Assembly (NCBI GenBank): GCA_038213615.1 | Contig: JBBQSV010000001.1 | Location: 4,032 to 68,031 of the forward strand | Source of the DNA: Candidatus Saccharimonadales bacterium | GTDB lineage: Bacteria; Patescibacteriota; Saccharimonadia; Saccharimonadales; OMJO01 | Direction of reading: 5' to 3' | DNA length: 64,000 nt | Shown here: positions 1,088-9,926 of the stretch, piece by piece | How the letters are laid out: each line of letters starts with the position of its first letter | Position numbering within the stretch: position 1 is the first letter of the stretch | Notes under the pieces: model-generated | Databases searched by the model: none | Seen by the model: only the letters and a program-made list of their open reading frames with translations | Told to the model about the DNA's origin: nothing | Translations under genes and position numbers: made by a program

Positions 1088-1115
1088 ACGTCGCACAATG
1101 TATATTTTGCGACTC
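1088..1115. other. dif-like Xer recombination site candidate
   Basis: Sequence is ACGTCGCACAATGTATATTTTGCGACTC. Its core matches 16/18 of the E. coli dif core CGCATAATGTATATTATG, including the TGTATA centre. Arms GTCGCA/TGCGAC are inverted repeats. It lies in the ORF-free convergent spacer 889-1456. Confidence 0.5.
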
Positions 1116-1456: not shown

Positions 1457-2335
1457 TTACCTATAAAACGCCCGCTGTTCAACCCGAACATCCACATACT
1501 GCCTGGGCACAATGTGAGTACGCTTGAGTTTGTGAGCCACAGCCAGGTATGTCCCTGCTTGCAGGCGTGCGTCGCCCTGGAGATTTGTCTTTATGTAATA
1601 CTTCTGTCCAGCAATGTCTACATTCAACTGATTAGCAACACTAGGCAATACCAGACTAGATACCGCCACCCTGCCGTAGGCCAGTTCCTGAATGAATGTT
1701 GTTATAAAGTCTACGGTACTACCTGGCAATATCTGCTGCCCTGGGTTTATGGCTAAACCGCTCTGGTCACTTATAGCCAACAGCTTAGGAGGTTGCCGTA
1801 AGCTACTGATATCAACAATAGCCCGGCCCGTGGTATCCAAAATGAACTTGTTGCCTAGCTGTGGGACTAATATATAGGCTGGTTCGGCCAGCTGGATAGC
1901 TATTACCGGCTTACGCCCCACCAACGGGACTTTAACGCTGACGTCTTCTATTTCTGGTAGTTTATCTCTGATTTGCCGCTCTACCTGGGCCGTATCTAAT
2001 GTTAGTTTATTGCCATTCCAAAATGATTTACCCAATATACTACTAACTTGTTGAGTATAGTAGCCCTGGCCTTTGGCAGGCAGGCTAGTTTGTTGATCGA
2101 TAGCCACAATTGGTGTGCTGCTGAGTGTAGATAGATAGACCATCGAAACAACTATCAGCACCAATGCTAGTAGGCTGGGCAGATGCTTCAGCCACTCCCA
2201 GCTGCGCCGTTTGCTAGGCCTGGGCGTGGGCCTAGAGTTGGCTCCAGAGCTATAGTAACCATAGCTTAAAGTTTTGGGGGCCTGGCTTGGGGTGCGTAGC
2301 CGTCGACCTGAGCTGGGCTTTTTTGGCCTAAACAT
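1457..2335 (-). CDS. ftsQ: cell division protein FtsQ/DivIB-like (POTRA)
   Basis: Basic N-tail, a single TM (LPSLLALVLIVVSMVYL) and a C-terminal YVDVRVEQRAFY-type end. Last gene of the dcw cluster; its start overlaps the murG stop by 8 nt. Confidence 0.75.
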   Translation of the reverse strand: MFRPKKPSSGRRLRTPSQAPKTLSYGYYSSGANSRPTPRPSKRRSWEWLKHLPSLLALVLIVVSMVYLSTLSSTPIVAIDQQTSLPAKGQGYYTQQVSSILGKSFWNGNKLTLDTAQVERQIRDKLPEIEDVSVKVPLVGRKPVIAIQLAEPAYILVPQLGNKFILDTTGRAIVDISSLRQPPKLLAISDQSGLAINPGQQILPGSTVDFITTFIQELAYGRVAVSSLVLPSVANQLNVDIAGQKYYIKTNLQGDARLQAGTYLAVAHKLKRTHIVPRQYVDVRVEQRAFYR

Positions 2336-3479
2336 GTTGCTTGGTACCAGCTAGCTCCAGCAATATGTTGGCCAGTTTTGCAGCGCCCCCAGTGGGCGTA
2401 ATTGACTGGAATTTATCCCCCAAAGCCGTTCGCTTTTCTTTACTATCTAACAGCTCTTCTGCCGCCAGGAGCAGAGGTTTGGCATCCTTGGCTAGCTCTT
2501 GCTCTGTCACAACCACCACCGCTCCCTGCTCGGCCAGTTTTTGAGCATTTATTACTTGATGCCCCCCTGTTAGCAAGGGGTTAGGAACCACCACACAAGC
2601 CCTGCCCTGCATGCCCAGTTCGGCCAGATTAGTAGCGCCTGCCCTGGTGATAACTACATCGGCAGCGCCCATGTAGCGGTACATGTCATATATAAAGTCT
2701 TTAACGATTAACCTAGGTGATTGTTGAAACTGGGCCCGGTTACCACGGCCAACCTGAACCACCACCCGAATATCTTTGTATTTGGCTAACAAGGCTGGCG
2801 TAATCTTGGCTACGGCGGTATTTAGCCTCTGCGCACCCAAGCTACCGCCGGTAACAAACAGTACCTTGGCATCACCCGGTAAGCCCAAGGTTTTTCTGTA
2901 CTCTGCCTGGAGTTTAGCGTCAACATGCTGAAAACTATTTGCCAGTAGTGGCCCGACAAACTTGGTTTTTTCTTTGGGATAGTTATAGAACTCTGCTGGC
3001 ATAGCGGTGGCGTGGACAGTAGCCCATTTGGACACCATACGGTTAGCTAGACCCGGTAAGGAATCAGAATCGTGTGTCACTAGCTTGATCCCAGCTCGGC
3101 CAGCCGCCATGCTCACCGGTACGCCTACGTAACCACCTTTTTGAAGTACCACATCGGGTTTAACCTTTTTGACTATACGCCTAGCCTGAAAGATGCCCCG
3201 TGCTATCCTGGCCACGTCCCTTGCGTTCAGTGCCATAACTTTCAGGTCTAGCAGATTACGAATTTTGCTTTGGCCGCTGTAGCGCCGAAACTTACCAGAA
3301 GATATCCGGTAGACCTCGTCGAACAGTTTACTGCCGTCGGCTATGTCGTCGAACTTACCGCCCCGTTCGCCAACGTAAACAATATGGCAGTTCGGCTGCT
3401 TAGCTTTGAGTTGCTCAGCGATTGCCAAGAGAGGCGTAATATGTCCGCCGGTCCCGCCCCCGGTAAGAAGAATTACCAT
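2328..3479 (-). CDS. murG: UDP-GlcNAc:lipid I N-acetylglucosaminyltransferase MurG
   Basis: Contains the LLTGGGTGGHITPLLA motif. Internal ATG 3479 (MVILLTGGG) is preferred over the ORF-track start 3590, which would overlap ftsW by 176 nt. Confidence 0.9.
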   Translation of the reverse strand: MVILLTGGGTGGHITPLLAIAEQLKAKQPNCHIVYVGERGGKFDDIADGSKLFDEVYRISSGKFRRYSGQSKIRNLLDLKVMALNARDVARIARGIFQARRIVKKVKPDVVLQKGGYVGVPVSMAAGRAGIKLVTHDSDSLPGLANRMVSKWATVHATAMPAEFYNYPKEKTKFVGPLLANSFQHVDAKLQAEYRKTLGLPGDAKVLFVTGGSLGAQRLNTAVAKITPALLAKYKDIRVVVQVGRGNRAQFQQSPRLIVKDFIYDMYRYMGAADVVITRAGATNLAELGMQGRACVVVPNPLLTGGHQVINAQKLAEQGAVVVVTEQELAKDAKPLLLAAEELLDSKEKRTALGDKFQSITPTGGAAKLANILLELAGTKQHV

Positions 3480-4659
3480 CGCTTGTCCCTTCTGCCTCGC
3501 CGGCCTGATTAATGTCGTAGGTGGTATATCTGGAAATATTAAACGCCACACCCATGATGGCGGCCACAAACATAATGCTGGTGCCCCCATAACTAATAAA
3601 TGGCAGTGTTATGCCCTTTAGGGGTAGCAGACCTATCATAGCGCCGATGTTCATGATCATCTGAGTGCTCAGCCAAGCCAAAATCCCCACCATGACCAAT
3701 CGACTAAATAAATCTGGGGCGCGTTCCATGATGTTTTTTAACTTCATGAACAAGGTCGTAAACAAAGCTAGTAACACCGTTACACCAATGAAGCCGAACT
3801 TCTCGGCGATAATGGCAAATATCGAGTCGTTGGCCGAATATGGCTGATAGCCATAAGCCTGTACGCCACGAGCCAATCCCTTGCCGGCTAAGCCACCAGA
3901 ACCTACCGAAATTAAGGCCTGACACTCCTGGTAACCGGTGTTCAGACAGTCGCTGTTGGGGCGCAAAAATGTAGTCAAACGATCCCGCCGATATCCCGTG
4001 CTAGACACCGCTAAAACAATGCCTATCAAAACTATGCCGCCAATGAATGCCACCTTTTTGAGTGGCATGCCGACTATGTAGCACATAGCCGCCACCATAG
4101 CGACAATCACGCCGGTTGAACCAAGATCTCTTTGTACAATGGTCACTACCACTCCAACCAGACCGAGCATGATTAGTAGTGGCCTAAATGTCTTATCAAA
4201 ATCCCCCAGTAAGCCACGTTTGTATCGGTCTACCAAAAATACTGCTAGCCAAATAAGCACCGCAAACTTAGCTAACTCTACGGCCTGAAATGAAAGCCCG
4301 CCTATCTGGATCCAGCGGTAAGCACCGTTCACTTTCTGGCCAAGCAAGCGCACCCCGGCGGCTGCAATTAACGCACCTATAATTAAATGCTTCTGAAATC
4401 TTCGCCAAACTGCCAGTGGGATCAACGAAGTCGCTACAAACGCTATTAGGCCTAGGCCAATAGCCATCAACTGCTTGGTAACATAATAATTCTCGCCCAC
4501 TCCCTGCTGAGCGGCCAGGCCTGGGCCGATGGAATATATAACTACTAAACCAAAAACGAGTAGGATAACACTCAGTAAAACCAGGCTGTAGTCTGGTTTG
4601 TGTCGGCGCTGCCAAGTACGGTTTAGTAAACCAGATTTGCGGCGACTAGACGGGCTCAT
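3415..4659 (-). CDS. ftsW: SEDS-family peptidoglycan polymerase FtsW
   Basis: Polytopic FtsW/RodA-like protein in dcw context. ATG at 4657-4659 overlaps the mraY TGA (ATGA coupling). ORF-track start 4722 is an upstream alternative. Confidence 0.9.
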   Translation of the reverse strand: MSPSSRRKSGLLNRTWQRRHKPDYSLVLLSVILLVFGLVVIYSIGPGLAAQQGVGENYYVTKQLMAIGLGLIAFVATSLIPLAVWRRFQKHLIIGALIAAAGVRLLGQKVNGAYRWIQIGGLSFQAVELAKFAVLIWLAVFLVDRYKRGLLGDFDKTFRPLLIMLGLVGVVVTIVQRDLGSTGVIVAMVAAMCYIVGMPLKKVAFIGGIVLIGIVLAVSSTGYRRDRLTTFLRPNSDCLNTGYQECQALISVGSGGLAGKGLARGVQAYGYQPYSANDSIFAIIAEKFGFIGVTVLLALFTTLFMKLKNIMERAPDLFSRLVMVGILAWLSTQMIMNIGAMIGLLPLKGITLPFISYGGTSIMFVAAIMGVAFNISRYTTYDINQAGEAEGTSDGNSSYRGRDRRTYYASLGNR

Positions 4660-8012: not shown

Positions 8013-8975
8013 TTATTTTTTAACTGCGGCTCGGAGCTTGGCGCTCCGGGCTCGCGGATTGTAAACAATCTCGTCGGCGTCGGCCGTGATCGGTTGCTTG
8101 CCTAGCAACTTCAGGACTGCGTCGTAACGATTACCAGCATGTTCGGCAAAGAATTGTTTAACAATTCTGTCTTCCAAACTATGAAAGCTGATAACCGCAA
8201 TTCGGCCTCCTGGTGCCAATAGGTCTAACCATATTGGCAATGCCCTTTCTAGCAAACCCAACTCGTCGTTCACTGCTATGCGTAAAGCCTGAAACGTTTT
8301 AGTGGCTGGGTGAACCTTGGCTTTGCCTCTTGGCTTGGCCCCAGCTACTATCCCTGCCAATTGAGTGGTAGTACTGATGGGACGGCTAGCTACAATTGCC
8401 CGCGCTATTCGTTTGGACATTGGCTCTTCGCCATAACGCCAAATGATGTCGGCCAACCCTGGGCCATCTAGGTTGTTGACCAAATCAGCTGCCTTAGCTG
8501 ACTGAGTTTGGTCCATTCGCATATCGAGTGGGCCTTCTGCTTTTAGGCTAAAGCCACGCTCGGCATTGTCAAGGTGCGGTGACGACACACCCAAATCCGC
8601 CAATATGATGTCGAATTGCTTCCCTGCCGACTTTAGCTGTTCAGCCATTGTCTCGAAGTCGCCGTGTAGTATTTCTACCCCAAAGCCTTCGTATTTGATA
8701 CGCAGTTGGTCAATCGCATTTTGATCGCGATCCACTAAAGAGGATTGTTGATGGTTAAAGGTGCGTTCCAGGATCAAGTCCGCATGTCCGCCGTATCCCG
8801 CCGTTAGGTCAAGGAAGCGATCCTTGCCCTTTGGGTCCAAGACATTTAGAACGTGCTGGGCCAGAACTGGAATATGTTGTTGTCTTGCAGAGAGCCCTGA
8901 CCCGCTATACTCAGTGGGCCAAGATTTACCGCCAAGATCTTTTTTGGTTTGGTGTTTTTGTGGTGTGTCTTTCAT
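8013..8975 (-). CDS. rsmH: 16S rRNA (cytosine1402-N4)-methyltransferase RsmH/MraW
   Basis: DLTAGYGGHA SAM motif and ISFHSLEDRIVK motif; dcw context. Confidence 0.95.
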   Translation of the reverse strand: MKDTPQKHQTKKDLGGKSWPTEYSGSGLSARQQHIPVLAQHVLNVLDPKGKDRFLDLTAGYGGHADLILERTFNHQQSSLVDRDQNAIDQLRIKYEGFGVEILHGDFETMAEQLKSAGKQFDIILADLGVSSPHLDNAERGFSLKAEGPLDMRMDQTQSAKAADLVNNLDGPGLADIIWRYGEEPMSKRIARAIVASRPISTTTQLAGIVAGAKPRGKAKVHPATKTFQALRIAVNDELGLLERALPIWLDLLAPGGRIAVISFHSLEDRIVKQFFAEHAGNRYDAVLKLLGKQPITADADEIVYNPRARSAKLRAAVKK

Positions 8976-9031
8976 GTAAACTTTTGTTTTTGCTTATTGA
9001 TCACGCCGGAGGCGAATCAACAAGAATTTTT

Positions 9032-9061
9032 GTTTTACAAGGTCACCTATCCAGCAGTCAA
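9032..9061 (-). promoter_or_regulatory. candidate internal promoter upstream of rsmH
   Basis: On the minus strand: TTGACT, 18-nt spacer, TAAAAC, about 55 nt upstream of the rsmH ATG. Confidence 0.3.
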
Positions 9062-9566
9062 CTATTTGTTTTTTTGGAGTTTTTATTTTTGTTGTTTCCA
9101 AGTTCATTGGGGAGTCTTTCTGATGTCTTTTGACGGACACTAGGAAACCCCAGATTCCTTGAAATAAGTTTGAGAGACTTATGTGAGGTGGAGTTTTGGG
9201 AGGTGTTTTAGTGTAAGGAGCGAGGGTTTTTATAAGGTGGTTACCCTATGACCACCTGTTGACTGCCGAATAGCTAACCTCGAGTTCTGGCACTTGTACC
9301 ATTTTGGCCTGCTTTCTAGCTTTGCTAGAAACTCTGCCAAAACTTTTGAAGTACTGCTGTGTCGACTGCTCCAGTGCTCCATCATCGTATTCATATACGA
9401 TTCAGTCCGCGCTTCGCAGTCTCCTTGCATTACTTGCAAATACAAAACCCAGTTTGTGAATGCGTGCGATCAAGCACAAAACTCACAAGTCCCTTCCCGT
9501 ATTGTGGAAAGTGACTGTTTTTTGCTATTTTTTGTTAATGAACGCTAGCGCGGTTGGTTCAGCTGG

Positions 9567-9926
9567 TTAGGCTGCACTAATCCGCCAGTAACGGCCAGCT
9601 CTCACGGCTACCACTTCGTGGTCTATCCCGGCGTAATCCAACAGATGTTGTTCGATAGTGATCCGACCCTGTTTTTGGTCTAGCTCACTATCAGTTTTGC
9701 CCGATCTAAACTGTACGTTCAAATCGGCCGTCCTCTCGTCCAGGATGCTGCCTTGGAGCTGAGGCTCTACCTGCTCTTGCCACACATTCTGTGGATACAA
9801 ATGCAGGTACTGTTGAAAACCGCGGGTTATCACTACCCCGCTAGCAAACTCGGCTCGAAGCTCAGCAGGTATGGTTAACCGCCGCTTGTCGTCAAGTTTC
9901 CTCTCGAAGTAATCTACCGTGGCCAT
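9567..9926 (-). CDS. mraZ: transcriptional regulator MraZ
   Basis: Two SpoVT/AbrB-like halves (DDKRRLTIPAELR and KQGRITIEQHLL). First gene of the dcw cluster. Confidence 0.85.
   Translation of the reverse strand: MATVDYFERKLDDKRRLTIPAELRAEFASGVVITRGFQQYLHLYPQNVWQEQVEPQLQGSILDERTADLNVQFRSGKTDSELDQKQGRITIEQHLLDYAGIDHEVVAVRAGRYWRISAA

Follow-up and report, generated by a model that had tools for sequence, protein, structure and literature searches.

The 28-bp element at positions 1088–1115 of a 64,000-nucleotide stretch of Saccharibacteria DNA (the window hereafter; positions 4032–68031 of contig C1) is, judging from its sequence, its conservation and the recombinase encoded in the same genome, very probably the chromosomal dif site of this organism, a member of the Saccharimonadales in the Patescibacteria or candidate phyla radiation (CPR). 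It comprises a left arm, ACGTCGCACAA (1088–1098), a centre, TGTATA (1099–1104), and a right arm, TTTTGCGACTC (1105–1115), and is assigned to neither strand. An earlier reading of the window, made from the letters alone (the sequence-only reading), had singled out the 28-mer ACGTCGCACAATGTATATTTTGCGACTC as dif-like, and we could verify it letter for letter on the + strand. It is unique in the window even when up to three mismatches are allowed, and 100 shuffles produced no match. Its core, CGCACAATGTATATTTTG, is identical to the Escherichia coli dif core, CGCATAATGTATATTATG, at 16 of 18 positions, TGTATA included, with two mismatches, as had been reported. A calculation with uniform composition reproduced the earlier estimate of 0.003 for the chance of such a match, and dinucleotide shuffles gave 0.01 such 18-nt core matches expected per window. 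The outer parts of the arms, GTCGCA and TGCGAC, read directly from the sequence, form the perfect inverted repeat previously described, and the 11-nt arms around the TGTATA centre agree at 8 of 11 positions. The element hence has the architecture required of dif, namely two inverted arms of ~11 bp around a 6-bp centre.

The limits of the element were also apparent on alignment of 119 sites, in which information content was at background beyond A-Y-[24-mer]-R-T, that is, beyond 28 bp in an 11-6-11 arrangement; as exact match to the 24-mer pattern was the criterion for including a site, the measure is unbiased for the flanks only. Within the 24-mer pattern the degenerate positions found to vary were three of the centre (11, 14 and 15) and the symmetric pair 5/20 of the arms, and relaxed searches found that other core positions vary as well. 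Such a pattern of conservation over 28 bp is as would be expected for the core site of a tyrosine recombinase, with one protein reading both arms.

The 24-bp core occurs once in the 724-kb assembly (33 contigs, 88% complete, 47% GC) and once per genome in relatives, and the remaining matches to the 18-nt pattern in the genome all have two mismatches and all lack the arms. Across the order the site is near-invariant: with three mismatches or fewer the core was found in 56 of 61 relatives, covering 51 families, nearly always once, and the reversed-pattern control gave none. It is also widespread in the phylum, with a match within two mismatches in 182 of 401 Patescibacteria that sample the phylum evenly (0 of 401 in the reversed control). 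Scanning one genome per species, we found the site in at least 120 contigs from Saccharibacteria, Paceibacterota/Parcubacteria (Nomura-, Campbell-, Kaiser- and Yonathbacteria and Minisyncoccia among the matches listed), Shapirobacteria and Berkelbacteria, and the public contigs with the same site as the window are labelled Saccharibacteria or Saccharimonadales. A perfectly palindromic version, GTCGCACAA-N6-TTGTGCGAC, occurs in some families, and in others the right arm is TTATGCGAC, which starts like the canonical dif arm (TTATG).

The window's genome encodes exactly one tyrosine recombinase, which is XerD/XerA-like, and this fits the proposal of the sequence-only reading that palindromic arms point to a single-recombinase system. 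The sole gene with a Phage_integrase domain (PF00589; G000:C14:11937-12896) encodes a protein of 320 aa with Phage_integrase and SAM-like domains, in whose sequence R, K, H-x-x-R, H and Y motifs are recognisable. It scored 259 and 258 bits on the XerC and XerD models, respectively, both under the equivalog cut-offs, passed the XerA_Arch model NF040815 (232.9 bits, cut-off 220) and failed the XerS model (125.7 bits, cut-off 267). Compared with solved structures, the protein came closest to E. coli XerD (134 bits) and Pyrococcus abyssi XerA (131 bits), with XerH at 48.6 bits. Orthologues, mostly the sole copy, are present in 58 of the 61 relatives at 62–85% identity; for comparison, MurG identity is 33–53% in a 20-genome subset of the same relatives. 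Among 14 further site-bearing genomes, mostly from other CPR classes, 12 have an orthologue at 45–65% identity, one, of the same order, has it at 81%, and the last has only a 41%-identical fragment. The genome also encodes FtsK (contig C8, 729 aa) with FtsK_4TM, alpha, FtsK_SpoIIIE motor and FtsK_gamma domains, the last at 94 bits. In other bacteria the FtsK gamma domain contacts Xer.

In at least seven other CPR lineages recombinase gene and site are neighbours. The xer orthologue lies 0.4–1.05 kb from the site in the site-bearing sequences L131, L132, L102, L154 and L181 and, by coordinates, ~0.3 kb from it in L098 and in L110, a Shapirobacteria contig. In the window's genome the two are not adjacent, xer being on contig C14 and the site on contig C1. 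Five of these sequences (L098, L102, L131, L132 and L154; CAYIFB010000001.1, CAYWTN010000010.1 and others) belong to metagenome-assembled genomes (MAGs) of 0.9–1.4 Mb labelled 'uncultured Gammaproteobacteria' or 'Pseudomonadales'. These MAGs carry the CPR dif site with a CPR-type xer adjoining, and their taxonomic labels are probably wrong.

Related viral contigs indicate that recombination does occur at the site, insofar as the arrangement of their sequences can be so read: in two of them, integrase-less inovirus-like prophages appear inserted at the homologous position. The site pattern was found in 26 IMG/VR viral contigs, 25 of them without an Xer-like gene. The full site of L278 stands after a host FtsQ-like gene and before genes for a rolling-circle Rep (phrog_3419, 1e-14) and a Zot-like protein (phrog_197), and 5.5 kb from it there is a second site in the same orientation, the half-site GTCGCACAATGTATAT|TGCGATAT, with left arm and centre identical to those of the full site and a diverged right arm. 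In L279 murG and the FtsQ-like gene precede the full site, and a 5.3-kb element whose Rep belongs to the same family separates it from a half-site that has 17 nt in common with it. By analogy, this is how elements without an integrase of their own are laid out when they use the host Xer at dif. The CTX and VGJ phages of Vibrio and the filamentous phages of Xanthomonas are likewise integrase-less and exploit genuine dif sites. The window itself holds an empty site. Among the IMG/VR contigs (L271–L296), many have the central-region variant ATACAT (GTCGCACAATATACATTTTGCGAC), several are 30–50 kb long, far above inovirus size, and one, L272, encodes a distant Xer-like protein (30% identity) at ~0.6 kb from the site.

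The sequence-only reading had also put the element forward as a candidate replication terminus, where two replichores would converge. This found support in relatives from the maxima of some strand and skew curves, but in the window's own contig only in part: at the site there is a switch in gene orientation and in AT skew but not in GC skew. Because the assembly is in 33 contigs and GC skew does not flip within the ~5 kb left of the site, the terminus assignment for the window's genome rests on relatives. By synteny, contig C32 (3.7 kb) adjoins C1 as its left flank, and is too short to decide the question of GC skew.

In four long or complete genomes the site is within 0.2–0.6 kb of a gene-strand or GC-skew maximum, though not every curve agrees. 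In G013 (one contig, 669,327 bp) the site is at 226,554 and the cumulative gene-strand maximum at 226,180, 374 bp off, where AT skew flips as well; the GC-skew minimum (627,887) is near dnaA (646,511), with oriC signals near dnaA. In G055 (one contig, 692,464 bp) the site (332,926) is close to both the gene-strand maximum (332,419) and the detrended GC-skew maximum (332,477), and the detrended GC-skew minimum (140,223) is near dnaA (129,670). In G063, an 840-kb Minisyncoccia contig, the site (214,685) is 199 bp from the GC-skew maximum (214,486) within the 200 kb examined and 11 kb from the gene-strand maximum. Sampled windows of this contig have positive skew and + strand genes from ~640 kb round to 214 kb, and dnaA at 666,308 gives replichores of 46:54. 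Finally, in the complete genome CP064960.1 (G066; 1,322,297 bp) the site (643,564) is at 48.7% of the circle and 604 bp from a local gene-strand maximum (642,960). GC and AT skews drop together from left to right across the site in 14 of 14 relatives tested, 13 of them additional to the genomes above, which is the polarity of a terminus whatever the orientation of the contig. The site is thus a point of convergence of two gene-orientation blocks in relatives, often, but not always, at a GC-skew switch.

An antipodal position relative to dnaA was considered as a test of the terminus and dropped in view of G055, and the skew and gene-strand curves were used instead. With the origin at dnaA and the skew minimum (130–140 kb) and the terminus at dif (333 kb), the G055 replichores would be 29:71, for which misassembly, a recent rearrangement or a real mechanism of fork arrest could be responsible. 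One-sided GC skew was seen in CP064960.1 (L251–L270), in G055 (L026–L060), with a net excess of ~18,000 G on one strand, and in contig C1 itself. A similar strand disparity is reported for a Microgenomates genome (PMC7143001).

In the mechanism that we propose for the candidate dif site, two pairs of the single XerD/XerA-like recombinase would bind the near-identical 11-bp arms of the two dif copies on a chromosome dimer, and strand exchange across the 6-bp centre would then resolve the dimer to monomers. FtsK, with its gamma domain present, would probably align and activate the reaction at the septum. The site, where gene-orientation blocks converge, would mark the terminus in relatives, and in this order it lies directly downstream of the division and cell wall (dcw) operon. 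These steps are drawn from established Xer/dif systems, and for this genome we infer binding, cleavage, dependence on FtsK and the position of the terminus.

The site lies in a gene-free spacer of 568 bp between convergent operons (889–1456, without strand assignment), delimited from the lists of open reading frames (ORFs). The sequence-only reading had it as the one large convergent spacer of the window, and no other convergent junction there has a gap of more than 3 bp; in it the + strand ORF 493–888 meets the − strand ORF 1457–2335; 60 of the 70 gene-like ORFs in the window are on the − strand. On the left, a HARE-HTH (RNA polymerase delta-like) protein (1–483, +; PF05066 4e-12, TIGR04567 4e-11) is a conserved neighbour, found in relatives at 61–92% identity and 0.3–4.4 kb left of the site, and the 131-aa ORF at 493–888, from the ORF list, is the final + strand gene before the site and matches no Pfam or NCBIfam family. 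On the right, the ORF at 1457–2335 (−) is an FtsQ-like gene, the last of the dcw operon, transcribed towards the site; Pfam and NCBIfam searches gave no match to its product, which is a position-conserved protein in relatives with 24–42% identity. It is followed by murG (2328–3590, −; TIGR01133 4e-58 and Glyco_transf_28 N- and C-terminal domains). One flank of the site thus consists of the FtsQ-like gene, murG, ftsW and the remainder of the dcw operon, and the opposite flank of the HARE-HTH protein, a sigma factor and topA. A 591-bp gene-free gap also occurs within the dcw operon, at 8976–9566, between the − strand ORFs 8013–8975 and 9567–9926.

This synteny, together with a conserved module of ~510 bp around the site, adds to what the sequence-only reading had described. 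In 20 of 20 Saccharimonadales genomes murG points at the site from 1.3–2.7 kb away, and in Paceibacterota the murG-site distance is 3.1–4.7 kb. In the G063 contig neither dcw nor HARE genes occur within 20 kb of the site. On alignment of 47 Saccharimonadales spacers several conserved blocks were apparent in the spacer besides the site. Its two outermost elements are exact 16-bp direct repeats, GAACATTTTACGAACA, in the same + orientation at 926–941 (box 1) and 1422–1437 (box 2), with the consensus yGAACA-N5-CGAACA, itself a tandem repeat with an 11-bp phase. By a strict pattern, 18 of the 47 spacers have box 1, at 164–239 bp to the left of the core, and 40 have box 2, at 323–421 bp to its right, and in the window's genome the 16-bp repeat occurs only as these two boxes. 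Phasing of 11 bp is typical of tandem-binding regulators, such as those of the OmpR/PhoB family, and here it suggests a tandem-binding regulator. We rejected the boxes as SOS (LexA) boxes, GAAC-N7-GAAC, of which the genome has 14 against 22 expected and the conserved version at two places only. Their reading as Xer half-sites was weakened: TTTTACGA resembles the right arm, but the GAACA repeats are what is conserved, and because the middle part varies among relatives (AAAAT, AATTT) the boxes are probably not half-sites.

To the right of the site, 30–45 nt after it, is a conserved block at 1131–1161, AGnTGATnA...ATACCTCCC-loop-GGGGA(G)TTT. It includes a terminator-like hairpin by predicted fold, CCTCCC-loop-GGGGA followed by T-rich sequence (1146–1161, +), conserved in alignment A1 and in the 47-spacer set. 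C-to-T changes in the hairpin preserve G-U pairs only on the + strand, and the hairpin probably serves as a terminator for that strand, in which case the transcript of the left operon would run through dif. A small ORF at the ATGATTAC...CCTCCC block was discarded, since its frame is not kept in relatives, one of which has a 1-nt insertion. Further right is a perfect DnaA box, TTTTCCACA (consensus TTWTNCACA; 1265–1273, +), 175 nt from the core, and all 47 Saccharimonadales spacers have a forward DnaA box, at 175–265 nt to the right of the core; genome-wide there is no general enrichment (42 boxes against 52 expected). That this box might make the spacer an origin was ruled out by the terminus polarity of skew and genes and by the oriC signals near dnaA in G013. 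The 47-spacer alignment also has T-rich conserved blocks at ~1286–1300 and 1353–1394. Neither Rfam (E up to 1) nor ARAGORN found an RNA gene in the spacer, and a promoter scan of it gave matches at chance level.

It is conceivable, though we consider it unlikely, that in Saccharimonadales dif forms the centre of a ~510-bp module (926–1437) fixed directly downstream of dcw, a nucleoprotein assembly that would link dimer resolution and the completion of replication to division, or would help to define where forks meet. If so, the module could help to explain the very unequal replichores and the one-sided GC skew of some genomes.

Several observations weigh against assignment of the element as the chromosomal dif site. 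No match within two mismatches was found in 55% of the 401 sampled Patescibacteria. GC skew in the window's contig is ~−0.09 both left and right of the site, with ~5 kb available to the left; in G013 its maximum is 21–66 kb from the site (247,516 raw, 293,060 detrended); in CP064960.1 it is positive genome-wide (0.02–0.15), with no sign change and a mere step down at the site; and in G055 the site is just 29% of the circle from dnaA. Moreover, the dcw synteny within Saccharimonadales is such that conservation at the level of the order, taken by itself, could fit a locus-specific regulatory element, the site can fold as a 9–10 bp stem, and the terminator-like hairpin stands conserved downstream with its + strand G-U pairs kept. 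The last three would suit an RNA element, whether the hairpin of the 3′ untranslated region of a convergent operon or the 5′ hairpin of a ~75-nt small RNA ending at the CCTCCC/GGGGA terminator, as would the location between convergent operons and the variation of arm positions 5/20 as C-G, T-G, C-A and T-A. But the C-A and T-G intermediates both occur, so that pairing is kept throughout on neither strand, and stem and loop are invariant across families whose MurG proteins are 33–53% identical, whereas RNA stems drift with compensation. Rfam gave no match (E up to 1), the stem is not followed by a U-tract, and flank complementarity is no higher than in shuffled controls; flank covariation, considered because the flanks look palindromic by eye, was rejected on finding complementarity at shuffled level with a weak excess at one position. 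In other classes, moreover, the element has unrelated gene neighbourhoods, xer adjacency included, and prophages have seemingly recombined into it. We therefore regard an RNA element as highly improbable.

A site bound by Xer or used by mobile elements, with a main role other than dimer resolution, would accommodate the prophages that integrate at it, the conserved module with its protein-box-like repeats and DnaA box, and the missing GC-skew flip at the site in some genomes. Such a site could be an attachment site for integrase-less phages, or could serve SMC unloading or terminus organisation like the XDS, the XerD-binding sites of Bacillus subtilis. Phage attachment alone, however, would not keep a site single-copy and near-invariant phylum-wide alongside a highly conserved housekeeping recombinase, and known integrase-less elements of this type use genuine dif sites; the geometry of two arms and a 6-bp centre is that of a strand-exchange site and not of a half-site, and an FtsK with a gamma domain is present. 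We accordingly judge this explanation improbable. An operator for a dimeric transcription factor, acting on dcw or on the left-hand operon, would be palindromic as the element is, and would adjoin the cell-division operon as the element does in every Saccharimonadales genome checked, but the element is at the 3′ ends of both operons rather than at promoters and is conserved in classes with different neighbours. Chance resemblance to dif is opposed by the 0.003–0.01 matches expected per window and the empty reversed control in 401 genomes, and the likelihood that the element is either an operator or such a coincidence is exceedingly small. The chromosomal dif site remains the reading that we favour.

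Patescibacteria (CPR) account for much of bacterial diversity, and to our knowledge their chromosome biology is almost unstudied. Full-text literature searches for dif or Xer in Saccharibacteria, Patescibacteria or CPR yielded no description of either, and a paper on a closed Saccharibacteria genome inferred ori and ter from GC skew alone. The element is very probably the dif of a single-recombinase Xer system, of a known kind but apparently not yet described for the phylum. As a single-copy 28-bp terminus marker found phylum-wide it could serve to orient and check MAG assemblies and to locate the terminus where GC skew is unreliable, which is the case for several of the genomes studied. The predicted one-enzyme Xer system offers a minimal model that is testable in E. 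coli or in the now-transformable Saccharibacteria, and the insertion point of integrase-less filamentous phages in these epibionts would also be identified.

Compared with known systems, the predicted one shares with XerC/XerD-dif of E. coli (and CodV/RipX-dif of B. subtilis) the 28-bp 11-6-11 site, its single copy (in relatives at the putative convergence of replichores), FtsK gamma and exploitation by integrase-less filamentous phages. It differs in having near-identical arms, with a difference at one inner position, and one recombinase instead of the two paralogues of those systems, and the XerD-type arm TTATGTTAAAT is absent. With XerS/difSL of streptococci and lactococci and XerH/difH of Helicobacter and Campylobacter it has in common one recombinase and one site, and in several CPR lineages xer adjoins the site as xerS adjoins difSL. 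Its recombinase, however, is an orthologue of neither, on the XerS model and XerH structure scores given above, and the site, unlike difSL and difH, resembles canonical dif, with xer not adjacent in this genome. The prophages resemble the integrative mobile elements exploiting Xer (IMEX), namely CTX and VGJ of Vibrio cholerae and the filamentous phages of Xanthomonas, in having Rep and a Zot-like protein, no integrase, and a full site plus a hybrid site sharing one arm and the centre, and differ in that they are known from related metagenomic contigs alone and not from the window. The archaeal XerA/dif systems of P. abyssi and Thermoplasma acidophilum also have a single recombinase and a 28-bp quasi-palindromic dif; the recombinase described here passes the XerA_Arch cut-off and fits the XerA structures 4A8E and 5HXY nearly as well as it does XerD. 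Archaeal XerA works without FtsK, whereas the present host is bacterial and encodes a full-length FtsK that includes gamma. Altogether, by score and architecture the putative site matches the XerA type, in a bacterium with FtsK gamma.

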